Source of the DNA: Promethearchaeota archaeon | Lineage (GTDB): Archaea > Asgardarchaeota > Lokiarchaeia > Sigyniarchaeales > SOKP01 | Length of the DNA: 64,000 nt | Direction: 5' to 3' | NCBI GenBank assembly: GCA_048938855.1 | Contig: JBHLLT010000014.1 | Coordinates: forward strand, 18,230 to 82,229 | Shown here: positions 21,143 through 45,859 of the stretch, one piece after another | Position numbering within the stretch: the first letter of the stretch is position 1 | How the letters are laid out: each line of letters begins with the position of its first letter | The notes under the pieces: model-generated | What the model was told of the DNA's origin: nothing | What the model saw: the letters and a program-made list of their open reading frames with translations, nothing else | Databases searched by the model: none | Program-made: the position numbers and the translations under genes

Positions 21143-22828
21143 GTGAAATTATTAATGTTTGATAAAAATTATTTATATAAAATTCAACAAAAAAAGGAAA
21201 CATGGGAGAAAAAAGTCAAAGACGCAAAAGAACGCAATGTAAAATTTGTTACTGATTCTGATATTCCTATAAAGCAATTATATACGCCTTTAGATGTTAA
21301 AGGAGATTATTTTGAAAATGTAGGCTTTCCAGGATTGCCTCCCTTTACAAGGGGAGTATATCCAAACATGTATCGTGGAAGACTTTGGACCATGAGGTTA
21401 TTTTCTGGCCATGGAACTCCTGAGGAAACAAATAAAAGATGGAAATTTCTCTATGAAAATGGAGAGACTGGTTTTAGTGCTGCAGTGGATGCTCTAACGT
21501 TTAATGGGATTGATCCTACCAATAAAGATGGAGCTCCAGAAGTTGGAACATCAGGAGTGCCACTATATTGTATAGACAGTCTTTTTGCTCTTACGGAGGA
21601 TATTCCAATTGATAAAATAAGTGTTGCATTAGTTGTAGAGCCTTTTACATGTGCTCCTGTATGTTCAATGTATTTCAATATGGCACAAATGCGCGGATAT
21701 GACCTCAAACAATTGATGGGAACAACGCAAAATGATATACTTACAATGACAGTTGGATATATTCCATATAAGAATAGTCCTCCTAATCATATTCTCCGGC
21801 TGGCTTGCGATTTTATTGAGTGGACAGTTGCCCAAAAAAATGTACCACAATGGCACCCAATTAATTTCACAGGTTATAATTATCGAGAGGGAGGAATTGA
21901 TGCAGTACAAGAACTTGGTTTCGTATTCGCAAGTGCCTGTTCTCATATCGATAACATAATTGAGAGAGGGTGGAAAGCTGACGATTTTGTTGGGCGATTA
22001 GCATTTCATTTAGCAGCTCATAAAGACTTCTTTGAAGAAGTTGCTAAATTTAGAGCAGCAAGAAGAATTTGGTATAAATTAATGAAAGATAAATATGAAG
22101 TCAAAGATCCTAGAAATTTAGGCTTTCGATTCCATGTTCAAACCGCAGGTTCTTCCTTAACAGCTCAATCACCAAAAATTAATATTGTAAGAACTGCAAT
22201 CCAAGCATTAGAAGCTAACTTAGGTGGATGTCAATCATTACATACAAATTCTTATGATGAAGCTATTTGTTTACCCTCGGAAGAAGCAGCTTTAGTTGCT
22301 TTAAGAACTCAACAAGTAATTTCAGATGAAACTCGAATTCATAATACTATAGATCCTCTCGCTGGTTCATACTTTATTGAATGGTTAACGGATGAAGTTG
22401 AGGAGAGGGTATGGAAATATATTGATAAAATCCAATCAGTAGGTGCTATCGATAAAGCTCTTTCTACAGGGTTTTTATATAAAGAGATGAGAGATGCATT
22501 TCATAAACGAAGAGTGAAACTCGAGAGTGGTGATGAGATAATGTTAGGTGTAAACAAATATATTGTGCCTTATGACACTGTTACAGATGTTTTTAGAACA
22601 AATAAAGAAGCAATGGATATTGAGGTAAGAAGAATTGAAAAATTAAAAGCTCGAAGAGATAATGCGAAATTAGAAAAGATCTTTGACAAACTGAGAGATG
22701 TTTGTGAAAAAGAAGAAAATGTAATGCCCGTCGTTATGGAAGCTACCAAAGAAGGAGCAACTTGCGGGGAAGTGTGTAATATATACAGGGAAATCTGGGG
22801 AACTTGGGATCCTCCTTTAGCAATTTAA
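21143..22828 (+). CDS. Adenosylcobalamin-dependent acyl-CoA mutase, large subunit (MCM family, atypical specificity residues)
   Basis: PFTRG.YP.MY, QNDIL, FFEEVAKFRAARR, GG.QSLHTNSYDEA and DPLAGSY motifs. Likely ATG start at 21155. Confidence 0.92.
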   Translation: MKLLMFDKNYLYKIQQKKETWEKKVKDAKERNVKFVTDSDIPIKQLYTPLDVKGDYFENVGFPGLPPFTRGVYPNMYRGRLWTMRLFSGHGTPEETNKRWKFLYENGETGFSAAVDALTFNGIDPTNKDGAPEVGTSGVPLYCIDSLFALTEDIPIDKISVALVVEPFTCAPVCSMYFNMAQMRGYDLKQLMGTTQNDILTMTVGYIPYKNSPPNHILRLACDFIEWTVAQKNVPQWHPINFTGYNYREGGIDAVQELGFVFASACSHIDNIIERGWKADDFVGRLAFHLAAHKDFFEEVAKFRAARRIWYKLMKDKYEVKDPRNLGFRFHVQTAGSSLTAQSPKINIVRTAIQALEANLGGCQSLHTNSYDEAICLPSEEAALVALRTQQVISDETRIHNTIDPLAGSYFIEWLTDEVEERVWKYIDKIQSVGAIDKALSTGFLYKEMRDAFHKRRVKLESGDEIMLGVNKYIVPYDTVTDVFRTNKEAMDIEVRRIEKLKARRDNAKLEKIFDKLRDVCEKEENVMPVVMEATKEGATCGEVCNIYREIWGTWDPPLAI

Positions 22829-22845
22829 TTTTTGAGGTGTAAAGC

Positions 22846-23244
22846 ATGAGCGAGAAAAAGATAAGAGTTTTAATGTCTAAACCGGGTATAGATGGACATT
22901 GGCGCGGAGGTATTGTGGTCTCAAGAGCCATCAGAGATGCTGGTATGGAACTCATTTTTGGTGGTTTCCAAAATACACAGCAAATTGTTGAATCTGCAAT
23001 TCAAGAGGATGTTGATGTTATAGGATTAAGTATCCATTCTGGTGCTCATTTTGCATATACTCAGCAAGTTATTGATCTATTAAAAGAACGTGGAGTACTT
23101 GATAATATAATGATACTGGTTGGTGGTGTAGTTCCTGCTAAAGACTTTGCTAAGCTAAAAGAGATGGGGGTTGCTAATATATACGGACCCGGCTCAATGA
23201 CTTCGGATATTGTCGAATTTATCAAAACACATGTCAAAAAATAA
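22846..23244 (+). CDS. Acyl-CoA mutase cobalamin-binding small subunit
   Basis: KPGIDGHWRGG (DxHxxG), QEDVDVIGLS.HSGAH and GG motifs. Confidence 0.92.
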   Translation: MSEKKIRVLMSKPGIDGHWRGGIVVSRAIRDAGMELIFGGFQNTQQIVESAIQEDVDVIGLSIHSGAHFAYTQQVIDLLKERGVLDNIMILVGGVVPAKDFAKLKEMGVANIYGPGSMTSDIVEFIKTHVKK

Positions 23245-23315: not shown

Positions 23316-24290
23316 TTGAATACTGCATATGATATTGATACATTAATTAGTAAATTCAAGCAAAAAGACAAAATTGCTTTGGCAAAATTAATAACACTTA
23401 TTGAAAATGAGCCAGAAAGAGCACATGAAGTGTTTAAACATTTTGAAGGGCAAATACATGATTCCTATATAATAGGTATTACTGGATCTCCTGGTGTTGG
23501 AAAAAGTACATTAACTGGAGCAATTTCGAAAAAATTACTAGAACAAGGAAAATCTGTGGGTATAATTTGCGTTGATCCTACGTCTCCTTTTAGTGGAGGG
23601 GCATTCTTGGGAGACAGAGTTCGAATGACAGAGATATCATTACATCCAAATGTATTTTTACGTAGTTTAGCATCGAGGGGTTATAAGGGAGGAATTTCAA
23701 GAGCGGTTTTTGACATTAGTTTATTATATGAAGCATATGGAATGGATGTAATTATTATTGAGACTGTAGGTGTTGGGCAAGCCGAATTTGACATATATAA
23801 TCTTGCTTATTCTGTAGTAGTAGTTTTAGTTCCTGGATATGGAGATGCTATTCAAATGCAAAAAGCTGGGATTATAGAAATTGGTGATATGTACAACATA
23901 AATAAAAAAGATTTAGGAGGAGAAGATATCGCAGTTCAAATTGAAATGATGCTTGATGATACTATATTTCAAAGTGGGTGGAGACCTCCAGTTTCTATGA
24001 CTGATGCAATTGCGGGCGAGGGAGTAGATGATCTTATCCAAAATATTTGGGACCATAAAGAGCATCTTGAACTATCAGAAGCTATTAATGAGAAAAAGAA
24101 AAATAGATTTACATATAAGATTAGAGAATTAATTTATACTAAAATTGAAAAACTTGTTTCAGAAAGTTTTCTTAATGAAAGCGAAATTAATGAGATTGTA
24201 AATCAAGCGGTAAACGATGGAAAATTCAAAATTTACCGTACAATCCATAATAAATTCGAAGATGTGAATTTTGAAATAAAGAAGAAGTAG
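23316..24290 (+). CDS. meaB: Mutase-associated GTPase chaperone MeaB/ArgK
   Basis: GSPGVGKST, VDPTSPFSGGAFLGDRVRM, ETVGVGQ and NKKD motifs. Confidence 0.93.
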   Translation: MNTAYDIDTLISKFKQKDKIALAKLITLIENEPERAHEVFKHFEGQIHDSYIIGITGSPGVGKSTLTGAISKKLLEQGKSVGIICVDPTSPFSGGAFLGDRVRMTEISLHPNVFLRSLASRGYKGGISRAVFDISLLYEAYGMDVIIIETVGVGQAEFDIYNLAYSVVVVLVPGYGDAIQMQKAGIIEIGDMYNINKKDLGGEDIAVQIEMMLDDTIFQSGWRPPVSMTDAIAGEGVDDLIQNIWDHKEHLELSEAINEKKKNRFTYKIRELIYTKIEKLVSESFLNESEINEIVNQAVNDGKFKIYRTIHNKFEDVNFEIKKK

Positions 24291-24422: not shown

Positions 24423-24908
24423 GTGGATGATATCACACAAATAGAAAAATTTCATAATTTGAATAGAGACCTTAAAGCTGAGAATCTAATTAGGGAAACT
24501 AAAATTCTTACTATTGGTAGATTAGCTAAAATATTAGTTGATTTATTTGGTTCTAATGAAATATTTAAATCAATTAGTGAAAAAGAAGGGCAAGAAATTG
24601 AAGTATGTTTTAAAGCTTTAAATGAATATTTGACTTTTGTTTTAACAACAGACAGAGAAAATTTTGATTGTTATGCCGATAGGGCTAAAAATCCAGTTTC
24701 TAGAGTTATAATAGCAGTTAAAGAAGATAAGATACTTCAAGTATTCAGTGCGATTGTAAGATCTAAAAATAATATTTTTGGATTGGCTAAATTATTGAAG
24801 TATATAATTCCTGGTAAAATAAGGATCAAAGGCTCATATCTTACCACTTTAAAATGGGTGAGATGTATAATGATAGGGAAGCATAGTATTTATAAAAATG
24901 ATAAATGA
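24423..24908 (+). CDS. SCP2 (sterol carrier)-like domain protein
   Basis: C-terminal GKIRIKGS..TLK resembles the SCP2 GKLKIxG motif; size fits. Confidence 0.5.
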   Translation: MDDITQIEKFHNLNRDLKAENLIRETKILTIGRLAKILVDLFGSNEIFKSISEKEGQEIEVCFKALNEYLTFVLTTDRENFDCYADRAKNPVSRVIIAVKEDKILQVFSAIVRSKNNIFGLAKLLKYIIPGKIRIKGSYLTTLKWVRCIMIGKHSIYKNDK

Positions 24909-24917
24909 GGTTTTAAA

Positions 24918-26066
24918 ATGAATTTGCAGAATGATCCTTTTTTGAGGATTTCAGATACAATTTTAAATCCTTATATAACAGAATGGCAAAAGAATAAAAA
25001 AAAAATCATAGGCCATTATTGTACCTATATTCCAGAAGAATTGTTATATGCTGCAGATTTATTACCTTACAGAATTAGGGCAACTGGACACGAACATACG
25101 AATTTAGCAGATATTTATATGGTAAGATTTACCTGCTCTTTTGTAAGAGCAACCTTAGATATGGCATTGAGAGGCATTTATGATTTTTTAGATGCTCTTT
25201 TCATTTGTAATTCTTGTGATCATTCTCGACGAATGTTTGAGTTATTTGATCTAAAAGTGTTTCGAAGGGAGGGATTTCTGAAAAAAGTTCAAAGATTTTA
25301 TGTTTCTACTCCTCATGTTATAACAGAAGAAGGCTTTAAATGGTACAAAAGAGAAATTGAAGAATTAAAAGAAAATATTGAGAAGAATTTCATTAATCGA
25401 AAAATTACTGACCATGATCTTCAATCTTCAATAGAAATCCATAATGAAAATCGCAATCTCCTTAGAAAAATTCATGAATTACGGATTATTGATGCACCTA
25501 AACTTAATGGAAGTGAAGCTTTGCAACTATCAATAGCGAATGCTTCTGTTCCTAAAAATATTGCCAATCAAGAGTTGAAAAGGATCTATAATGATTTAAA
25601 TGAAAAAGAAGGAATAAAGGAGAATTCTAAGAGAATAATGTTGATTGGTAGTGAAGTGGATGATATCACTTTTACCAAGCTTATTGAGAATTCGGGAGCA
25701 ATTTTAGTATCTGATTTCTTATGTTTTGGGACACGTAATTTTTTAGATGATGTAAAGACCGATGGGAATTCTCCACTAGAGAACATTATAAAAAGAGTAT
25801 ATTACAGAATGTCTTGTCCAAGAATGATGGATGATCATATAAGGAGATTGGAGTTTTTAAAAAAGGAAATTGATAGAGCAAAAGTCGATGGAGTCATATT
25901 ACAAAGAGTAAACAATTGTGATCTTTATGGATGTGAAAATATGATGTTAATTCATGAACTAAAGGAATTGGATATTCCAATTCTGAATATGGATAGAGAG
26001 TTTTACCAAACTGATACCACAAGAATGCAAACAAGAATAGAAGCATTTCTCGAAATGATTTCTTAA
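24918..26066 (+). CDS. 2-hydroxyacyl-CoA dehydratase / benzoyl-CoA reductase-type subunit (HgdB/BcrC-like)
   Basis: CTYIPEELL.AA, CSFVR, SCDHSRR, CDL and TRIEAFLEM motifs. Confidence 0.88.
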   Translation: MNLQNDPFLRISDTILNPYITEWQKNKKKIIGHYCTYIPEELLYAADLLPYRIRATGHEHTNLADIYMVRFTCSFVRATLDMALRGIYDFLDALFICNSCDHSRRMFELFDLKVFRREGFLKKVQRFYVSTPHVITEEGFKWYKREIEELKENIEKNFINRKITDHDLQSSIEIHNENRNLLRKIHELRIIDAPKLNGSEALQLSIANASVPKNIANQELKRIYNDLNEKEGIKENSKRIMLIGSEVDDITFTKLIENSGAILVSDFLCFGTRNFLDDVKTDGNSPLENIIKRVYYRMSCPRMMDDHIRRLEFLKKEIDRAKVDGVILQRVNNCDLYGCENMMLIHELKELDIPILNMDREFYQTDTTRMQTRIEAFLEMIS

Positions 26067-26106
26067 TAAATTGAAATAATTGACAAAAAGAGAGTAGTTA
26101 ATAATA

Positions 26107-27396
26107 ATGCCAAATAGTCTCGAATTGGAGAATCGAGTTATTCCAATTAGAATGCTTTATGAATCTATATCAACAACTCACCAATTAGTTAAAGGAATCC
26201 TACCTGAAAATGGAATACCAGAATTGAGAATAGCTCTTGAGAAGGTTAAATCTGTTTTAAAAAAAAACCTTGAAAAAGCAAAAGAAGGATTGCCTATTGT
26301 GGGATATCATTTTGCTATTCCTGCTGAATACCTTTCCTGTTTTGATTGTGTTCCTGTGTGTCTTGAAGGAACCGGTTATTATTTATCAACATTATTATTG
26401 GATGGCGTAGAGAAATATTATGATTTAATGATTAATTGGGGTCATCCCTTTCATACATGTACAGCACAAAAAGGTCCAATGGGAATGGCTTTAGATGATC
26501 TATTTCGATTTAACGCAATACTTACCCCTACAGCACCTTGCGATAACACGTGTGCATCCTATCCATTTTTTAGATTAGAAAAAAAATTCCCTTTGATAAT
26601 TGCTGATATGCCATTTCGTATAAATGAGAAGAGTTATGAATATTATGGTAACCAGCTTAAGCAAAGTTTATATGAATTGGGGAGAGTAATAGGTCAAGAA
26701 CCAGATTTTGAGAAGATGAAAACTCATATTGAAATTGAAAACCGAGTACAGAAAATTAGATTTGAAATATTTGAATTAACTAAAGCTATTCCTAGCCCTA
26801 TTTCAAATATCTATAATGCAGTTTCTGCGGGAACATTCATTCTTGTTTCTGGGACAAAAGAAAATTTAGCTTTTTATGAAGAAGTATTGGAAATTGTAAA
26901 AAAAAGATATAAAACCAAAAAACATCATGGTGGAGAAGAAAAAATAAGATCTATTTGGCCCTACATGGTTACTTATTTTGATATGTCTCTATGTGAATGG
27001 TTGGATAGAGAATTAGGTATGAGTGTACTATTTGATATTTTTAATTATAATTTTTCAGATCCAATAAATACCACTTCAGACTTGAATACCATGTTTTTTG
27101 ATATGGCAAGAAAAAGCATGGGATGGCCTATGGTTAAGCAATCTACTGATTTTTATTATGCCTCACTTGAAAATTGTCTTAAGATGGCAAAGGATTTTAG
27201 TGCTGATTGTTTTATTTATACGCAGAGTTTAGCTTGTAAACAGTTTGGTTCCTTTCCACAATTATTAAGAGAAATGCTTAAAGAAGAGCTTGGTATTCCT
27301 ATGCTACTTATCGAATTTGATGTAGGAGATAAAAGATTTACTCCTCTAAAGGTTATAAAAGAAAAAATAAAAATGTTTGCTCAAACACTAATGTGA
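26107..27396 (+). CDS. 2-hydroxyacyl-CoA dehydratase / benzoyl-CoA reductase-type subunit (HgdA/BcrB-like)
   Basis: CTAQKG, PCD and ACKQ Fe-S cysteines; GIP.L.IE.D..D.R motif. Confidence 0.85.
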   Translation: MPNSLELENRVIPIRMLYESISTTHQLVKGILPENGIPELRIALEKVKSVLKKNLEKAKEGLPIVGYHFAIPAEYLSCFDCVPVCLEGTGYYLSTLLLDGVEKYYDLMINWGHPFHTCTAQKGPMGMALDDLFRFNAILTPTAPCDNTCASYPFFRLEKKFPLIIADMPFRINEKSYEYYGNQLKQSLYELGRVIGQEPDFEKMKTHIEIENRVQKIRFEIFELTKAIPSPISNIYNAVSAGTFILVSGTKENLAFYEEVLEIVKKRYKTKKHHGGEEKIRSIWPYMVTYFDMSLCEWLDRELGMSVLFDIFNYNFSDPINTTSDLNTMFFDMARKSMGWPMVKQSTDFYYASLENCLKMAKDFSADCFIYTQSLACKQFGSFPQLLREMLKEELGIPMLLIEFDVGDKRFTPLKVIKEKIKMFAQTLM

Positions 27397-27505
27397 AATA
27401 TTCCACTGATTTTATCATACTACTTTCAAAAACCACAAGAAAACTCTTTAATAATATTAATTCTATATTTTAAATTAATATCTAATCTAAAATTGTGATA
27501 TTAAA

Positions 27506-28981
27506 ATGAATAATGGCGAAATAGTAGCTGAATTAGGAAAAATTGTAGGAGATCGGTATGTTTCTGATGAACCTGAAATACAATTTTTATATCATTATGA
27601 TTTTATTACAGCAGAGCCAGAAGGTAAATGCGATGTTGTTATAATGCCTCAAACCGCTGAGGAAGTTCAAGAAATTATAAAATTTGCAAATAAAAATAAA
27701 ATTCCTGTTGTACCTTGGGTATCAGGAATAAATTTTGGTTCTATAGCTACTCCTAGAAAAGGTGGGGTCGTAGTTGATTTACGTCGGATGAATCGTATAT
27801 TAGAAGTAAATGAAGATGATATGTATGCTGTAATTGAAGCAGGAACGACATGGGCTGATTTGAAAGGATATCTTGACAAACATCATCCTAATTTTAGAGC
27901 AGGTGTTACCTTTTCACCACCGGGCACTGGGGTCATTCCATCTTGTTTATGTTATGGAATGTTTGATCTTGGCATGATTGGGGGAACTGGAGCAGAATTT
28001 ATAAATGGAATGGAAGTTGTATTAGGTTCGGGAGAATTGATAAAGGTTGGATCTTGTAGTCTCTCAAATTATTGGTATGGTAGACAACCATTACCTGATT
28101 TAGCTGGATTGTTTATAGGATGGGAAGGAGCAACAGGAATAGTTACTAAAGCTGCTATTAAATTGTGGCCTAAATTACCTTATAGAACTGATTACTTACC
28201 AATAGGATCAAAAATGGAAAATGGAGTTCCTATGATGCTTAAACTCTCAAAAGCAGGTTTAGGAATCTGCGATCTTGTTTTTCTTAATATGGGGTGGGCA
28301 CAGGCTTGTCAAGGTTTTTTTGAGAATAATGTAGCTATAGATCCGGCTGCGTTGGGTTTACCAGATTTTTTAGGATTAATAACAACACAAGCATTTACAG
28401 AGGATCAACATAAAGCTCAATGTAAAGCTATTGAATCAATTTGCAATGAATATAAAATAGAACCTTTAACTTCTGAAGTTCAAATGAACACCTTTCCAAG
28501 AGATATGAGAGGTATATTTATGAATTTAACTCCAGTTACGGGTGGTCAGACTCCACTTCAAGTTTGGGGTTGTTGGAATTTTGCACGGGGTGGTGGTGGC
28601 GAATGGATTGGATCATATTGTTCAACACGCGATATTGTAAAATATTATAATTTATCAAGAGAAGTATGTCTCAAGTATGGTAAACCTCCTCAATTCTATA
28701 GTAGAATTATGTTTGGTGGACATTATTGTGTTGCTCGAACAAATGTATGCTTCAATAAAAGTGATCCTGAAGATATTAATAAAGCGAGATTAATATTAAA
28801 AGAAATTCATGATGCCGTTCAAAAATTAGATGGTGCTGTTATGTATAAAGCTCCATTGTGGGTAATAGAATATTATAAAAATAAAACTCATCCTGCTACA
28901 ACCAAATTGATTAGTAAACTCAAAAATCTGCTTGATCCTAATGGAATAATGAACCCAGGGCATGGAATTGGAGGTGATTGA
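27506..28981 (+). CDS. FAD-binding oxidoreductase (GlcD/VAO family)
   Basis: VDLRRMNRILE, EAG, GMEVVL..G, EGATGIVTK and LDPNGIMNPG motifs. Confidence 0.9.
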   Translation: MNNGEIVAELGKIVGDRYVSDEPEIQFLYHYDFITAEPEGKCDVVIMPQTAEEVQEIIKFANKNKIPVVPWVSGINFGSIATPRKGGVVVDLRRMNRILEVNEDDMYAVIEAGTTWADLKGYLDKHHPNFRAGVTFSPPGTGVIPSCLCYGMFDLGMIGGTGAEFINGMEVVLGSGELIKVGSCSLSNYWYGRQPLPDLAGLFIGWEGATGIVTKAAIKLWPKLPYRTDYLPIGSKMENGVPMMLKLSKAGLGICDLVFLNMGWAQACQGFFENNVAIDPAALGLPDFLGLITTQAFTEDQHKAQCKAIESICNEYKIEPLTSEVQMNTFPRDMRGIFMNLTPVTGGQTPLQVWGCWNFARGGGGEWIGSYCSTRDIVKYYNLSREVCLKYGKPPQFYSRIMFGGHYCVARTNVCFNKSDPEDINKARLILKEIHDAVQKLDGAVMYKAPLWVIEYYKNKTHPATTKLISKLKNLLDPNGIMNPGHGIGGD

Positions 28982-30233
28982 TTTGAAAAAGGAAAATCAT
29001 TTGAAATATATTAAAAATATGGGAATAACTGAACTAGATCTATTCGCAGATCGGATGAAATTAGAAAGAAAAAAAAATTTGGAATATTATAAAGATATTC
29101 TTTATCAATGTGGAAAATGTGGAACTTGTCGAACTGGTTTTCAAGAAGAAGGTTGGTATCGTGTTTGTCCTTCTGGAGAATATGGAAAATTCGAAGCCTA
29201 TTACTTAGGAGGAAAAAATCTGCTATCTTGGGCAGTTTCATCAGATCGTTTAAATTGGACCGATAACCTATCCAAAATATTTTATCAATGTTCGTTATGT
29301 TTGGCTTGTACTCAACAATGTCAAATCCCTGACATTCACCATTATGCAGGAGAATGGTTAATGGCAATGAGAGAAGAAGCTGTTCAGAAAGGCTTAGGAC
29401 CAATGCCACAACAAAAAAAGTATTCTGAACATGTTGCTTTAGAATACAATCCTTATATGGAAAAGCATATAGATAGAACAAACTGGCTACCTTCTCATAT
29501 ACAACAATCTCCAGATGCAAAATTAGCATATTTTGTTGGATGTACGACTAGTTATAGAGAACAAAATATCGCAATTAACACAGCAGAAATATTAAATACA
29601 CTTCAAGTCGATTTTAGAATACTTAAAGATGAACATTGCTGTGGATCTCCCATTTATATGACTGGTCAAACTGAACAAGCAAAGCAAATTGCTGAGACTA
29701 ATGTAAATACCTTTATAAATGAGGGGATTGAAAAAATTATTACATCATGCGCTGGCTGTTATCGAATGTTAAAAGAAACATACCCAAAGAAATTTGAGCT
29801 TAAACATGATATTGAGATACTTCATCTACCTGAGTTTATTCAAGATAAATTGAACAATAATGAAATAAAATTCAATAACAATTTAAATATGAAGATTACA
29901 TATCATGATCCTTGTCATATTGGTCGTCACATGGGAATCTATGAACCTCCAAGAGAAGTCTTGAAGAACATTCCAGGAATTGAATTGATTGAAATGCCGA
30001 GAAATAGACAAAATGCATGGTGTTGTGGTTCTGGGGGAGGTGTGAGATCAGCTTTTAAAGATTTATCTAGCTTTGCTGCGAACGAAAGAATTGAGGAAGC
30101 AAAAGAAACTAAAGCTGAAGCTATAGTCTCCTGCTGTCCATTCTGTTTAAATCAATTTAATGCCAATATTAAAGATGATAGCATTAAAACCTATGATCTT
30201 TCAGAATTAATAAATAAGGCAATTAAGAGATAA
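28962..30233 (+). CDS. Fe-S oxidoreductase with CCG domains (GlcF/HdrD-like)
   Basis: Two 4Fe-4S motifs, CCG, YHDPCH and CCGSGGG. Likely true start TTG at 28983 after GGAGGTGA. Confidence 0.9.
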   Translation: MELEVIDLKKENHLKYIKNMGITELDLFADRMKLERKKNLEYYKDILYQCGKCGTCRTGFQEEGWYRVCPSGEYGKFEAYYLGGKNLLSWAVSSDRLNWTDNLSKIFYQCSLCLACTQQCQIPDIHHYAGEWLMAMREEAVQKGLGPMPQQKKYSEHVALEYNPYMEKHIDRTNWLPSHIQQSPDAKLAYFVGCTTSYREQNIAINTAEILNTLQVDFRILKDEHCCGSPIYMTGQTEQAKQIAETNVNTFINEGIEKIITSCAGCYRMLKETYPKKFELKHDIEILHLPEFIQDKLNNNEIKFNNNLNMKITYHDPCHIGRHMGIYEPPREVLKNIPGIELIEMPRNRQNAWCCGSGGGVRSAFKDLSSFAANERIEEAKETKAEAIVSCCPFCLNQFNANIKDDSIKTYDLSELINKAIKR

Positions 30234-30286
30234 AACTATAAATCCTCTTTTTTTTATTATCTTTATAGAATCATAATTGGAATTTT

Positions 30287-31069
30287 ATGAAAATAGAATT
30301 ATTTGAAGAGATTCTTGATAATTTAAGGAATTATATCACTTCTGAATCCCAAAAAGGGAAGAACGTTTTCATTTATCAAAAAAATCTGGTTCCACTCAAA
30401 TTATTTGAAAAATTGAACATTAAAGTTGAACTTGATGAACATAAAGATATAGTTCTTCAAGAAGAAACTAAGCTTGAACTAGGTGGTATTAATAAAAAGT
30501 CATTCTCGTTAGTTTATCCATTCTCTAATCCAAATTTTATAACTCATATAAATAACGGAAAAATTACTTTAATTGGACAAAAAATCAAGGATATAACAGA
30601 TTTTTCTGTCGATTTTGGTATGATAATCCTAATTGGGGGAACATTTATTAATGGAAAGGATTGGGATTCTTTAAGGCAATTTAACCTTATATCTAATGGA
30701 ATAGAGGGTTTTTTAATCAAAACAATTCCTCGGAAATTCTGGTGTCGAATTAGTGAGAACGTAATAGAGAATTTTACATTTGAATTTTTGGGGAATGCTA
30801 TTTTTTATTTATATCAACAAAAATTTAAGGAGTTAATTGAATCAATTGAAATATTTTTTGTTAACACTTTTCCAAGTGTAATTGATAACTTTATTGAAAT
30901 TACTTCTAATATTAATACTTTTATAAATGAAAAATGGTTAAGGAAAATAGAAAACTGGAAAAAAAGAATTGATTGTGAATATGATTGGGGATGTGAAATA
31001 TGTCCTTATCAAAAAGAATGTTATGATATTAAGCAAATATTAGTTGAGAGAGAAAAAATTGAGAAATAG
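30287..31069 (+). CDS. Short protein resembling an acetyl-CoA synthase (AcsB/CdhC) domain, with C-terminal Cys cluster
   Basis: ET.LELGG...SF..V, ITLIG..I, EGF....P...W.RIS motifs; C-terminal C..CEICPYQKEC; adjacent to cooC. Confidence 0.6.
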   Translation: MKIELFEEILDNLRNYITSESQKGKNVFIYQKNLVPLKLFEKLNIKVELDEHKDIVLQEETKLELGGINKKSFSLVYPFSNPNFITHINNGKITLIGQKIKDITDFSVDFGMIILIGGTFINGKDWDSLRQFNLISNGIEGFLIKTIPRKFWCRISENVIENFTFEFLGNAIFYLYQQKFKELIESIEIFFVNTFPSVIDNFIEITSNINTFINEKWLRKIENWKKRIDCEYDWGCEICPYQKECYDIKQILVEREKIEK

Positions 31070-31075
31070 TTCATT

Positions 31076-31864
31076 ATGAACGAAAAAAAGAATAGCATAA
31101 AGCCATTAACTATTTCCGTTGTTGGAAAGGGTGGTTCTGGTAAAACTATTATTACAACCCTTTTAGCAAAAGCAATATCTAAAAATTATAAAAAGAAATT
31201 GTTATTAATTGATGCAGACCCGACCCACCCTCATCTAAGTCATATGGTAAATTTAATTCCTGAAAAAAGTCTTGAACAATTAAGAACTGAAGTTATAGAT
31301 GAAATTCTAACAAAAGCCACTGATTTCAAGGAAGTAGCCGAAAATATTGATTTTGAAGTGTATAATGCTATAGCGGAGAGTAAAGATTTTAGTCTTTTCT
31401 CAATTGGTCAACCTGAGGGGCCAGGATGTTTCTGTCCTTCAAATACTCTCTTACGAAAGGTTATAGGATCGATTTCAAAAGATTTTGATATAGTTTTAAT
31501 CGATTGTGAAGCAGGACTTGAACAAATTAATCGAATGGTGATAGAATCAGTAGATCTTATATTGATTGTTTCAGATATATCAATACGGAGTATTGAAACT
31601 GCTGCTACTATACGTGAAAGTGCAAAAAAATTCACGAATTATAAGAAATTGGTTCTCATTCTCAACCGTGTTAAGGGAAATACAAGTCAAATTAAAAAAA
31701 AATTGAAAGATCTTAATATAAATCTATTAGGAGAGATTCCTGAAGATAATATAATAACTGAATTTGAATTAAAAGGTAGACCAATAATAGAAATACCTGA
31801 ACAGTCAAAAAGTTTTGCCGTTTTAAATAAATTGGTTGATAATATTTTAGAATTAGTATTCTAA
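31076..31864 (+). CDS. cooC: CooC/AcsF-like nickel-insertion ATPase
   Basis: GKGGSGKT, IDADP, GPGCFCP (CxC) and DCEAGLEQ motifs. Confidence 0.88.
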   Translation: MNEKKNSIKPLTISVVGKGGSGKTIITTLLAKAISKNYKKKLLLIDADPTHPHLSHMVNLIPEKSLEQLRTEVIDEILTKATDFKEVAENIDFEVYNAIAESKDFSLFSIGQPEGPGCFCPSNTLLRKVIGSISKDFDIVLIDCEAGLEQINRMVIESVDLILIVSDISIRSIETAATIRESAKKFTNYKKLVLILNRVKGNTSQIKKKLKDLNINLLGEIPEDNIITEFELKGRPIIEIPEQSKSFAVLNKLVDNILELVF

Positions 31865-37283: not shown

Positions 37284-38165
37284 TTAACTAGAAAGCAATT
37301 TTGGAAACTTAATCTGTTTCGCTAATTCTATTTGAATTATCTCGTCTAGTAATTCTTCTCTCTCACGACCAGAAAGAACTTCTAATTTCCTGATGTTTAA
37401 TGGATCAACTTTTTCTCTTAGTAATTTAAGTTCTTTCTCAGTAGGAGGTTCGGTTGTAGCAAGATTATCAGGTATGATAAGGTCAAATCCGGTTGAATCC
37501 TTTACCATATCAATATCAATTCCGGGATGGATCGAAGAAAGTCTCATTCGTTTAGTCTTTTCTTCAAAATCTAAATAACCAAGATTGCTTACCACACATT
37601 GAGGTCCTGAACCGCCACACACAGAAGGATTCCCATCTGGAAAACCTACACCTGATATGAAAAATAAATCTTTTGTTGGCACAAATGTCCTTTTATCATG
37701 TCTTGGAGTATAAAGAAAGGACCCACGTGCATAAAACATGCTGAAGTCAAGGATACCTGCTGCACCGGGCAATCTTATTTTAGGTTTTTCCCAATCTCCT
37801 ATACAAATGTTATTTGTATTTCCATATTGATCGATCTGAGCTGGTCTAAAGAATTCAATTGTAGTAAGCTTTTCAGAAGGAAGAGACTCTAACGTGCATT
37901 CTACACTATCTTGGAATCGATATGCTCGAGCAGTATTCATTTCAAGATATAATAATGAAACTTGGCGAGCTTCCATAACGAAAGTATTCCCCATAATATA
38001 ATGATATATCGCATCGGGAGCATAAGTTAACTTTGCCAATGTAAATGCTGCCCACACCATGGGGGTTGCTACACCAACGATCATTACATCATCATTTCTA
38101 ACTTCCCTTGCCATTAAAACAGTCATTATTTCATCTACTGTATAATTATTTGAATATTCACTCAT
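37284..38165 (-). CDS. Family I CoA-transferase beta subunit (GctB-like)
   Basis: AQIDQYGNTN, RLPGAAG, H.KRTFV and HPG...V...TGF motifs. Confidence 0.88.
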   Translation of the reverse strand: MSEYSNNYTVDEIMTVLMAREVRNDDVMIVGVATPMVWAAFTLAKLTYAPDAIYHYIMGNTFVMEARQVSLLYLEMNTARAYRFQDSVECTLESLPSEKLTTIEFFRPAQIDQYGNTNNICIGDWEKPKIRLPGAAGILDFSMFYARGSFLYTPRHDKRTFVPTKDLFFISGVGFPDGNPSVCGGSGPQCVVSNLGYLDFEEKTKRMRLSSIHPGIDIDMVKDSTGFDLIIPDNLATTEPPTEKELKLLREKVDPLNIRKLEVLSGREREELLDEIIQIELAKQIKFPKLLSS

Positions 38166-38177
38166 TATCGTTCCCTC

Positions 38178-39038
38178 CTATAATAGAATATTTAAAATTG
38201 TTTGAATTCCACCCGTTTCTTCTAAATATTGAGTAGGCGTCTTTTCTAATATGAATTTTTTCTTGTATACTTCAAAATCAGTTTTTAAATAACATTGAAT
38301 ATGTAGTGGATCGAATGTGTATATAGGATAACATGAAGTAGGATGAGCACCAAAAGGCATTTTGATAACAGCTGTAGTGGTTTGGACAGGTAATTGTGCT
38401 TTTCCTGGCAAATGACGGATATCCTCTGTTTCTACCAATTTTTCACATATAATAATTGTTTCTTTTGCTGTTTTTGCCATATCTGCATCCATCCATACTG
38501 CTCCAGGAATATTACCATTGCCAAATTCGTCAGCATAAGGAATATGTAATATTGCAACATCTAAATCAATTTTAGGTAGTGCCATGATCTGAGTTCCTGA
38601 ACCAAGAGGATCTTCAATTTGTTTAATATCTTTCCTGACTTTTGGCATATCTGTTCCAATAATTCCTTTCAAGGGCATAAACGGAACTTTCAAATAAGAT
38701 GCTCTTAATCCTAAGGCAATTGTGGCTTCGCTTTCCTCCGATATCTTGATTGAGCCTGATTCTACAGCCTGTCGAAAATGTGGAGCCATCCCGAAGATTT
38801 CCATTCCAACGAAACAACTTCTAACTTCAGATACACAAGCTCCTGCTATAAGCATATCGATTTCAATTCCACCTACAAAAGTACACACTGAAAGATTTTT
38901 CTTTTTTTGCCTAATTATTTCCCTGCAAGCTGCAATTGGTTTTCTCCAAAAAGAAAGTCCTCCAAATCCGACAAGATCTCCATCTTTAATGTAAGTTGAG
39001 ATAGCTTCTTCTAAGGACATTAACTTACTAGACCGTAT
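38178..39038 (-). CDS. Family I CoA-transferase alpha subunit (GctA-like)
   Basis: SLEEAI..IKDGD..GG, DMLIAG, DVAILH..AD..GN and PFGAHPT motifs. ORF-track start is 39020; an ATA at 39038 follows a GAGGGG SD-like site. Confidence 0.85.
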   Translation of the reverse strand: MRSSKLMSLEEAISTYIKDGDLVGFGGLSFWRKPIAACREIIRQKKKNLSVCTFVGGIEIDMLIAGACVSEVRSCFVGMEIFGMAPHFRQAVESGSIKISEESEATIALGLRASYLKVPFMPLKGIIGTDMPKVRKDIKQIEDPLGSGTQIMALPKIDLDVAILHIPYADEFGNGNIPGAVWMDADMAKTAKETIIICEKLVETEDIRHLPGKAQLPVQTTTAVIKMPFGAHPTSCYPIYTFDPLHIQCYLKTDFEVYKKKFILEKTPTQYLEETGGIQTILNILL

Positions 39039-40959: not shown

Positions 40960-41493
40960 ATTAGAAAGAGACTCAAAGAAGGTCTAGTTCAAGTTTATTT
41001 TGGCCGAGGTAAGGGTAAAACAACTGCTGCAATTGGACAAGGAGTACGTGCTACTGGGCATGGATTCAAAGTATATATGATTCAATTCATGAAAGGAAAT
41101 TATAAATATGGTGAGATAGAAGCCATTAAAAATATTCCCAATTTTGAACTAAAACAATTTGGTAGTCCTGAACTTATAGCAGAACCAGATAATTTTGATA
41201 AAGAAGAAGGAATAAAAGCACTCGATTATGCTAAAGAGATTATTATGAGTGATGATTATGATATCGTTATACTTGATGAAGTGGGAGTTGCAATATCTAT
41301 GAATGTAATTTCTGTAGAACCTGTTTTAGAACTTATAAAAAATAAACCAGAAAAAGTCGAGTTAATCTTGACAGGCGGACCAAAAATGCATCCAAAAATA
41401 AAAGAACTAGCCGATTTAGTAACCGAAATGAAAATGATAAAGCATTATTACTCTTCAAAAGGGATATCCGCTAGATATGGCATAGAATATTAA
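40960..41493 (+). CDS. cobO: Cob(I)alamin adenosyltransferase CobO/BtuR
   Basis: The frame extends upstream of the ORF-track start (41077) through GLVQVYFGRGKGKTTAA, then QFMKG, ILDE, ELILTG and ADLVTEM..KH. Proposed ATT start at 40960. Confidence 0.9.
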   Translation: MRKRLKEGLVQVYFGRGKGKTTAAIGQGVRATGHGFKVYMIQFMKGNYKYGEIEAIKNIPNFELKQFGSPELIAEPDNFDKEEGIKALDYAKEIIMSDDYDIVILDEVGVAISMNVISVEPVLELIKNKPEKVELILTGGPKMHPKIKELADLVTEMKMIKHYYSSKGISARYGIEY

Positions 41494-44162: not shown

Positions 44163-45422
44163 ATGGGTAAACTAAATAGAAGAGTTGCCATAGTAGGAGC
44201 GGGTATGTGTAAATTTGGCCGCAATTTTCCCACCAAACGTAATCCAGATATGTGGGTTGATGCTTGGATTGATGCAGTAAGTAGAACAGATAATGGTATT
44301 GAACCTAAGGATGTAGATGCTTGCTATGTTGGAAATTATTCTTCAGATTTATTTAATCATCAAGGTCATTTAGGACCACAAATGGCTGATTTAGTTGGTC
44401 TAACTCCAAAACCTGCTGCTAGATTTGAAGGTGCATGCGCTAGTAGTGGAGTTGCCTTTCGTCAAGGAATCTTAGCGATTGCATCAGGTGTTCATGATGT
44501 TGTTGCTGTAAGTGGAGTCGAATGTATGACGGAGGTATCTACTACTTTAGTAACTGACACATTAGCAACTGCTTCAGATAATTTATTTGAGTATCCTGCG
44601 GGAGCAACCTTTCCAGGGTTATATGCTGCAGTTGCATCAGCGCATTTTCACAAATTTGGAACAACTCATGATGATTTAAAACGAATAGCGATCAAAAATC
44701 ATGAAAATGGAAGTCAAAATCCTTACGCGCAAATGCAACAATCTTTGAAAGATATTATGGCAAGTAAAATAAAAAAACTTGAAACTGAAGGTAGAAACGT
44801 ACCAGATTGGAAAGATGAAATAGATTTTTTAAATAGTTCATCGAATCCTATAATTGCTTCTCCTTTACGATTATTCGATTGTTCATTAGTAACTGATGGT
44901 GCTGCTTGCGTATTCTTAGTAGCAGAGGATGTGGCAAAAAGATTTACTGATACCCCAATTTGGATAACAGGAACAGGACAAGGAAGTGCTGCACTTTCTC
45001 TACATGATAGAGGTGAGATAACGGGTTTTATCGCAGCTAGAGAAGCTGCTCAACAAGCCTACGAAATGTCAGGTTTAGGACCTAAGGATATCCAAATTGC
45101 GGAAGTCCATGATTGCTTTACAATCGCTGAACTGATTGCTTTGGAAGATTTAGGATTTTATGAAAAAGGTAAAGCAGCAGAAGCTATAAAAAATGGTGAA
45201 ACAAAACGAGATGGCGTAAGACCAATCAACACTTCTGGAGGGTTAAAATCAAAAGGACACCCAGTTGGAGCAACTGGTGCTGCTATGGCAGTTGAAATCT
45301 TTAAACAAATGCGTGGTATCGCTGAAAGGGATAGGCAGGTGAAATTTGATGTCGAGAGAGCATTGACTCATAATTTAGGAGGTTCTGGAGCCACATGTGT
45401 GGTTACCATATATGAAAAATAA
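44163..45422 (+). CDS. Archaeal/SCP-x-type thiolase (acetyl-CoA acetyltransferase)
   Basis: EGACASS, DCS..TDGA, EVHDCF, GHPVGATG and HNLGG motifs. Confidence 0.93.
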   Translation: MGKLNRRVAIVGAGMCKFGRNFPTKRNPDMWVDAWIDAVSRTDNGIEPKDVDACYVGNYSSDLFNHQGHLGPQMADLVGLTPKPAARFEGACASSGVAFRQGILAIASGVHDVVAVSGVECMTEVSTTLVTDTLATASDNLFEYPAGATFPGLYAAVASAHFHKFGTTHDDLKRIAIKNHENGSQNPYAQMQQSLKDIMASKIKKLETEGRNVPDWKDEIDFLNSSSNPIIASPLRLFDCSLVTDGAACVFLVAEDVAKRFTDTPIWITGTGQGSAALSLHDRGEITGFIAAREAAQQAYEMSGLGPKDIQIAEVHDCFTIAELIALEDLGFYEKGKAAEAIKNGETKRDGVRPINTSGGLKSKGHPVGATGAAMAVEIFKQMRGIAERDRQVKFDVERALTHNLGGSGATCVVTIYEK

Positions 45423-45439
45423 GAAGGTGACAAATAAAA

Positions 45440-45859
45440 ATGTTAAAAAATGAAATTACAATTCAAAATTATTTAGACTTCATTCATAACAAAAAATTGA
45501 TGGGTTCTAAATGTAAAAAATGTGGTGCTTTTGATGTCCCTCCAAGAAAATTATGTGTAAAATGTAATTCAACTGATACAGAATGGATTGAAATGTCTGG
45601 AAAAGGTAAAATTGCTGCTTTTTCTTGCATTACAGTAGGAACCACTTTTATGGTTAATAAAGGATATTCAATGAAAAAGCCCTATTGTTTTTCAGTCATA
45701 CAACTCGATGAAGGACCAATGATCTCAGGTCAGCTGGTTGGTGTTGATGAAACCAAACCGGATGATATAAAGATTAATACGCCTGTAAAAGCTATTTTTT
45801 TGGAAACGGAATTAGAAGGCGGAGAAATTAGAGTAGATCTTGGTTTTAAACCAATATAA
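45440..45859 (+). CDS. DUF35 Zn-ribbon/OB-fold thiolase partner
   Basis: CKKCG..PPR..C..C and LDEGP motifs; directly follows the thiolase. Confidence 0.92.
   Translation: MLKNEITIQNYLDFIHNKKLMGSKCKKCGAFDVPPRKLCVKCNSTDTEWIEMSGKGKIAAFSCITVGTTFMVNKGYSMKKPYCFSVIQLDEGPMISGQLVGVDETKPDDIKINTPVKAIFLETELEGGEIRVDLGFKPI

Follow-up and report, generated by a model that had tools for sequence, protein, structure and literature searches.

To our knowledge, the known acyl-coenzyme A (CoA) mutase reactions number only about six, and every addition to them (for example 2-hydroxyisobutyryl-CoA mutase (HCM), pivalyl-CoA mutase, the engineered lactyl-CoA mutase) has opened a pathway or a biotechnological route. 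Three pocket residues define the described enzymes, numbered here after methylmalonyl-CoA mutase (MCM; Propionibacterium shermanii, 1req; human, 2xij), in which Tyr89 and Arg207 hold the substrate carboxylate and His244 hydrogen-bonds the thioester carbonyl. In isobutyryl-CoA mutase (ICM; IcmAB, or the fused IcmF, 4xc6 and 5cjt-5cjw), Phe takes the place of Tyr89 and Gln that of Arg207, and a Lys-Glu (KE) pair and the His are retained; ethylmalonyl-CoA and pivalyl-CoA mutases both keep the His, and the former also the Arg. HCM of Aquincola tertiaricarbonis (HcmAB, 4r3u) is split into a large subunit of about 560 aa and a small B12 subunit, is served by a MeaB-type chaperone, and displays Ile90, Asp117, Gln208 and the His. 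Here we describe a mutase of a Lokiarchaeial Asgard archaeon (assembly GCA_048938855.1, contig JBHLLT010000014.1, positions 18,230 to 82,229) in which all three textbook residues, including the catalytic His, were replaced while the enzyme was well conserved and its cofactor system intact. The analysed DNA, hereafter the window, was this whole stretch of 64,000 nt, with about 30% G+C and with protein matches pointing to a Loki-type Asgard archaeon.

The mutase was encoded by a co-oriented trio of genes on the forward strand: the large subunit (substrate- and CoA-binding TIM barrel, 557 aa, 21155..22828), the small B12-binding subunit (132 aa, 22846..23244) and a MeaB-type G-protein chaperone for cofactor loading and repair (23316..24290). 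The open reading frame of the large subunit opens with GTG at 21143, while the start is ATG 21155 in all of the at least 120 homologues listed, which are 557-558 aa long. Domain content was that of the superfamily. The large subunit matched PF01642 over nearly the full profile (533 bits, profile positions 2-512 of 512) and passed the TIGR00641 cut-off (536.9 bits against 303.8); the small subunit (PF02310) scored 136 bits with the general family model TIGR00640, above its curated cut-off, and showed the DxHxxG...SxL...GG pattern of the His-on, base-off B12-binding Rossmann domain with one variant position (SIH for SxL). The adjacent chaperone gene, syntenic in orthologues, passed TIGR00750 (289 bits against 240.75) and matched PF03308. 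The models of described subfamilies were not reached: the large subunit obtained 423.5 bits with the MCM equivalog NF006944 (cut-off 876) and 232 bits with the IcmF equivalog NF045497, far below its cut-off of 1500. Among all PDB chains, phmmer ranked HCM 4r3u first (E 1.6e-127), followed by human and P. shermanii MCM and IcmF. An AlphaFold2 (AF2) model of the large subunit (mean predicted local distance difference test, pLDDT, 93) was superposed by Foldseek on the HCM large subunit with a template modelling (TM) score of 0.95 (root-mean-square deviation 1.7 Å, 559 columns, 37% identity) and on MCM with a TM score of 0.91.

Three alignment methods placed Phe83, Tyr202 and Asn242 in the columns of MCM Tyr89, Arg207 and His244: phmmer against PDB chains (HCM 4r3u, human MCM, P. 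shermanii MCM), a profile-profile alignment of the Asgard clade with 17 canonical mutases (hhalign), and MAFFT L-INS-i. The motif RLFSGH stood against RQYAGF in MCM and RQIAGF in HCM, QNDILTMTVGY against QNDILKEFMVR and QADILKEYMAQ, and TGYN against SGYH in both. The Tyr89Phe mutant structure 5req_A, which has F where 1req_A has Y, served as a numbering ruler and fixed the Phe83 column; counting residues along 1req_A put Arg207 opposite Tyr202 and His244 opposite Asn242. In some BLAST pairs a minority reading introduced a three-residue gap after QNDILK and brought Tyr205 to the Arg207 column, so that under either gap placement the residue in this column is neither Arg nor Gln. MAFFT --auto on 151 representatives misplaced gaps after QNDIL and was replaced by raw-offset reading, hhalign and L-INS-i. 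The changes from Tyr89 to Phe, Arg207 to Tyr and His244 to Asn proposed in the first-pass annotation were upheld by phmmer, hhalign, L-INS-i and the 5req_A ruler, and no alignment tried restored the canonical residues. Its calling of a B12 acyl-CoA mutase agreed with PF01642, TIGR00641 and the AF2 overlay, and DGHWRG in place of DGHDRG could be read directly in the small subunit.

Compared with the described systems, the Asgard mutase shared with MCM the fold, the CoA channel, the adenosyl-binding residues and DxHxxG His-on cobalamin binding, but displayed Phe83 and Tyr202 in place of the carboxylate-binding pair and Asn242 in place of the thioester-binding His. With ICM it shared Phe at the Tyr89 position, the lack of a carboxylate-binding Arg, the cofactor system and the G-protein chaperone; unlike ICM, it had Tyr or Phe for Gln, TM at the KE pair and Asn for His, and was not fused. 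HCM was its best PDB match by sequence and fold and had the same split organization, but none of the HCM-defining residues was found in the direct alignment with 4r3u_A, where Phe83, Ala110, Tyr/Phe202 and Asn242 stood for Ile90, Asp117, Gln208 and His (SAAVD against STDFD, VGY against MAQ, besides RLFSGH against RQIAGF and TGYN against SGYH). The His retained by ethylmalonyl-CoA and pivalyl-CoA mutases, and the Arg of the former, were absent as well.

Replacements extended beyond the three pocket positions. Among 68 columns near-invariant in canonical mutases (L-INS-i), 51 were kept and 17 changed, mostly in barrel strands (A84S, F111V, D142S, S158A, T160V, N162E, K197T, E198M, S237N, H242N, Y264H and S283A among them). 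Kept columns included the TRGxYPxMYxxRxWTxR stretch and those that we take to be MCM His328, Gln330 and Glu370. The sequence was strongly constrained among 119 close orthologues, with 279 of 559 columns invariant and LFSGHG found in 118, a sign of purifying selection. Position 202 was Tyr in 109 and Phe in 10 of these orthologues, and Phe also occupied the Arg207 position in a further family (f21). Phe83 and Asn242 were thus fixed while residue 202 was merely aromatic; the interchange of Tyr202 with Phe speaks for an aromatic wall and against a new polar ligand. Orthologues at 66-70% identity displayed RLFSGY, QNDICTMSLGF or QNDILTQTIGY, and TTYN.

The trait is family-wide and not peculiar to the source genome. 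In a survey of 301 Asgard genomes (orthologues defined at 67% identity or more), orthologues at 67-100% identity were present in about 55 of 69 genomes of the Lokiarchaeial family of the window, in 5 of 6 genomes of one other Asgard family and in single genomes of three more families, while in the remaining Asgard genomes surveyed all relatives were canonical and none exceeded 47% identity. In a representative library of 1.84 billion proteins, the closest non-orthologue was 44-49% identical, and the top 150 representatives encompassed many clusters with non-canonical signatures (e.g., xxYN, xxYD). The Asgard clade received a support of 100 and fell within a group supported at 99-100 (FastTree, 125 rows; IQ-TREE, 54 rows), together with the representative P0124, one Methanolliviera mutase, Chloroflexota/Dehalococcoidia proteins and a Desulfobacterales family. 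In both trees this group was apart from the clade of all MCM-, ICM- and HCM-signature rows, including the HCM-signature representative P0140, and a union of the Asgard clade with the canonical clade was rejected by the approximately unbiased (AU) test (p = 0.007, for a group named after the tree was seen). Across this non-canonical wing of the family, Asn for His244 was common and partner subunits mostly carried HW for HD. Loss of His244 is therefore common to many uncharacterised lineages, while the exact residue combination is unique to the Asgard clade. The first-pass claim that the enzyme matched no characterised subfamily held for MCM, ICM/IcmF and HCM; as a large non-canonical wing exists, the enzyme was not a lone oddity. 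No PDB entry, NCBIfam equivalog or paper was found covering the Asgard clade, which is a new variant within a known enzyme kind rather than a new kind of system.

The source genome encoded two further mutases. A paralogue on another contig (C20, L001:54-3129) carried RQFAGF, QNDILKEYIAQ and SGYH, an ICM/HCM-type signature, and was accompanied by a separate MeaB and a small subunit reading DGHDRG, which makes simple redundancy of the Asgard-clade enzyme with this paralogue unlikely. The third, a fragment cut by a contig end, showed RQYGGF, an MCM-type signature.

The small subunit kept DxHxxG and GG, but Trp replaced Asp after the cobalt-binding His. This DGHWRG was present in 27 of 27 Asgard loci, and D[GS]HDRG in 33 of 33 canonical loci. 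Of the 16 small subunits from non-canonical loci, 11 had Trp at this position, four had Phe, Tyr, Asn or Ser, and a single one had Asp; the lone DGHDRG belonged to a locus (L087) whose large subunit retains the His (VGYH). The residue after the cobalt His thus tracks the His244 column of the large subunit, and the pairing of Asn in the large subunit with H-W in the small one provides a simple sequence marker for finding the uncharacterised wing. A second change, from Leu to His in SxL (SIH), was found in all 27 Asgard loci (L034-L042, L122-L141), while the other non-canonical and the canonical small subunits kept SxL, save for one of about 33 canonical loci. The SIH motif may reflect a different lower ligand of the cobamide or an altered fit of the nucleotide tail.

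The most probable reading (roughly 0.75) is that the trio encodes a functional split adenosylcobalamin (AdoCbl)-dependent acyl-CoA mutase of an uncharacterised, deep-branching subfamily, its activity being predicted from sequence. The intact fold, CoA- and adenosyl-binding motifs, B12 subunit and MeaB argue for a working AdoCbl mutase and not a relic. The 557-aa barrel, the 132-aa His-on B12 subunit and MeaB would work together as a split mutase, through the steps expected from the family: the Co-C bond is cleaved homolytically, the adenosyl radical abstracts a hydrogen, the C(=O)SCoA group undergoes a 1,2-shift and the hydrogen is returned. In this enzyme the acyl pocket would be rebuilt, with an aromatic wall of Phe83 and Tyr/Phe202 at the site of carboxylate binding in MCM, and Asn242 lying where His244 hydrogen-bonds the thioester carbonyl; Asn should still be able to donate that bond. 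Several points weigh against such a reading. Activity and substrate are inferred for every member of the non-canonical wing. His244 is worth 100- to 1000-fold of the kcat of MCM, and an enzyme with Asn for His might be slow or of different chemistry. Residues 197-209 formed the least confident region of the alignment, with pLDDT of about 78-80 in the two 10-residue blocks covering 191-210. Pocket residues differed widely between subclades of the wing, so that the context of relatives may not transfer, and the HgdAB-like link described below was missing from most orthologous loci. MCM variants at His244 keep reduced activity and gain oxygen sensitivity, and a higher oxygen sensitivity may be of less consequence in strict anaerobes; the lineages seen in the wing were mostly anaerobes, with one Streptomyces member. 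The locus offers a clonable entry point into a large wing with neither a characterised member nor a solved structure, and it bears on the poorly known carbon metabolism of Asgard archaea.

Gene order around the mutase was conserved in its core and variable beyond. The invariant core was mutL-mutS-meaB, with meaB following the mutase genes in nearly all orthologous loci. In the window, a seven-gene block on the forward strand (24423..31864; Pfam and NCBIfam matches) came next, in the order: an uncharacterised 161-aa protein, two HGD-D proteins (HgdAB/Bcr/double-cubane-like), a GlcD-like flavin adenine dinucleotide (FAD) protein, a CCG/Fe-S protein, a CdhC-like protein and a CooC-like ATPase. 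This block was shared with four genomes of the same genus (G132, G192, G228, G279), was partial in a fifth (G243), and was absent from three more (G195, G216, G225) and from other genera, in which an alpha/beta-hydrolase gene or other genes directly followed meaB. The block has the character of an insertion that separates meaB from the alpha/beta-hydrolase gene, and the HgdAB-type block as a fixed part of the mutase operon was rejected on its absence from most orthologous loci. The HGD-D proteins of the block scored nearest to double-cubane and BzdN models, all below cut-off. No BcrAD-type ATPase was found in the window; eight BcrAD_BadFG-type ATPase genes were present outside the window in the source genome (C83, C70, C60:8901-9641 and C25), one of them on the contig of the window, about 30 kb upstream of the mutase, so that an HGD-D activator could be available in trans.

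The most widely conserved neighbour was a family-I CoA-transferase A/B pair (37284..39020, reverse strand; PF01144), found about 2-14 kb from the mutase in at least 10 loci of several genera, with homologues also adjoining another non-canonical mutase family (L165, L227). This CoA-transferase would make the mutase substrate from the free acid. HGD-D genes adjoined the mutase in 3 of 14 non-canonical and 0 of 65 canonical loci, these loci not being phylogenetically independent. In Methanolliviera, an HGD-D pair and a BcrAD ATPase accompanied three mutases in tandem; in Chloroflexota (L045), the mutase lay with an HGD-D pair and a family-III CoA-transferase; the third locus was from Thermodesulfobacteriota (L055). 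The Methanolliviera and Chloroflexota mutases shared a 13-row clade (99 SH-aLRT) with the Asgard mutase. In Methanolliviera (L043:1078-2730), xSYN replaced SGYH and the next gene encoded a small subunit with DSHFRG, again with an aromatic residue after the cobalt His; its mutase was only about 43% identical and had different pocket residues, and its locus, unlike the window, had a BcrAD-type ATPase. This operon had been remarked on, among BadEG/Hgd-like operons of Ca. Methanoliparia with 'methylmalonyl-CoA mutase' genes, with no function assigned (Laso-Perez et al. 2019, PMC6703427). A metagenome scan with P0124 added no further HGD-D context, its matches being for the most part canonical mutases or short contigs. 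Among non-canonical loci of Chloroflexi, one (L044) harbored two mutase pairs, a CoA-transferase, a CoA ligase, a thiolase and two CdhC-like genes.

The aromatic wall in place of the carboxylate-binding pair makes methylmalonyl-CoA and other carboxylated substrates unlikely, in line with what the first-pass annotation had proposed for methylmalonyl-CoA. With the acyl pocket rebuilt in this way, the substrate is most likely an uncharged (non-carboxylated) acyl-CoA, and as all three defining pocket residues are replaced, it is very probably an acyl-CoA yet to be identified. Ranking highest, as a tentative candidate, is an aliphatic acyl-CoA, branched or medium, that derives from the fermentation of amino acids (e.g., isovaleryl/pivalyl or 2-methylbutyryl/valeryl); a 2-hydroxy/3-hydroxyacyl-CoA pair connecting to HgdAB-type dehydratases comes behind it as a less probable one, with the remainder left to something else. 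The hydrophobic branched acyl-CoA suggested in the first-pass annotation is likewise a conjecture. An ordinary isobutyryl-CoA/butyryl-CoA mutase using Tyr/Phe and Asn for Gln and His would also fit a hydrophobic pocket with Phe at the Tyr89 position, as in ICM, and amino-acid-fermenting archaea do make isobutyrate. We consider it improbable, as the genome already has a Phe/Gln/His mutase with its own small subunit and MeaB, the clade lay outside the canonical MCM/ICM/HCM group in the trees and the AU test, 17 near-invariant canonical columns were changed and not just two, and the IcmF equivalog score was far below its cut-off. Still less credible, and close to dismissed, is an inactive or regulatory mutase-like subunit comparable to the MutA beta chain of P. 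shermanii MCM. The loss of three catalytic or specificity residues, His244 included, would suit it, but the enzyme comes with a MeaB and a B12 subunit of its own, the latter with DxHxxG and GG intact, the columns that bind CoA and adenosyl were kept, the pocket residues were strongly conserved, and Foldseek TM scores were 0.91-0.95 to catalytic alpha chains against 0.65-0.70 to beta chains.

The rival with most in its favour, though unlikely, is a hydroxyacyl-CoA mutase (HCM-like or lactyl-CoA-mutase-like). The neighbouring HgdAB-like radical enzyme, together with the GlcD/CCG pair, which resembles a 2-hydroxyacid dehydrogenase, would then produce or use up its 2-hydroxyacyl-CoA partner. This rival draws on HCM being the closest solved structure by sequence and fold, on the HGD-D pairs adjoining the mutase in five genomes of the source genus (partly in a sixth) and in the Methanolliviera and Chloroflexota relatives (the latter also with a CoA-transferase), and on the operon noted in Methanoliparia. 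These points were offset by the pocket itself, in which the hydroxyl-binding Asp117 of HCM corresponds to Ala110 and Ile90 to Phe, and Tyr202 can be replaced by Phe, as well as by the absence of the block from most orthologous loci and the sub-threshold, double-cubane- and BzdN-like scores of its HGD-D proteins. A broader proposal that goes with the split-mutase reading is held tentatively: the Asgard clade and its Methanoliparia, Chloroflexota and Desulfobacterales relatives may catalyse a carbon-skeleton rearrangement outside the known acyl-CoA mutase reactions, within an undescribed anaerobic pathway. A CoA-transferase would take part in it, joined in some lineages by an ATP-driven radical enzyme of the HgdAB/Bcr type, and the replacements of His by Asn and of Asp by Trp would then set this branch of B12 mutases apart in mechanism. 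The variety of pocket residues among subclades of the wing suggests a radiation of specificities.

Further genes of the window included a CobO/BtuR-type ATP:corrinoid adenosyltransferase, which makes AdoCbl (41077..41493, forward strand; PF02572, 130 bits). A thiolase gene (NF004720, 444 bits) was followed by a gene for a ChsH2/DUF35-type OB-fold zinc-ribbon protein (44163-45859), the usual archaeal pairing, and a similar DUF35-like gene adjoined the MCM-type fragment on contig C84 (L003:624-977). A scan of 19-33 kb with Rfam detected no riboswitch or other Rfam family. The 161-aa protein at the head of the seven-gene block (24423-24908) was 58-84% identical across same-genus blocks; neither Pfam nor the PDB gave a match for it, and the AF2 model (pLDDT 34) was unusable.

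In two unrelated lineages, genes resembling the beta subunit of acetyl-CoA synthase (CdhC-like) adjoined non-canonical mutases. The Chloroflexi locus encoded two full-length copies with a CODH/prismane-like gene (L044:14615-20268), and the window a 260-aa version with the N-domain only, together with CooC (30287-31864). In the ICM/HCM-type paralogue of the source genome, the canonical SVAFDLPT read SVAFSLHT, with Ser for Asp at a near-invariant position; at the same Asp, eight bacterial Phe/Gln/His loci (L071, L074, L080, L085, L089, L092, L098, L103) displayed AFH(L/M/F)PT.

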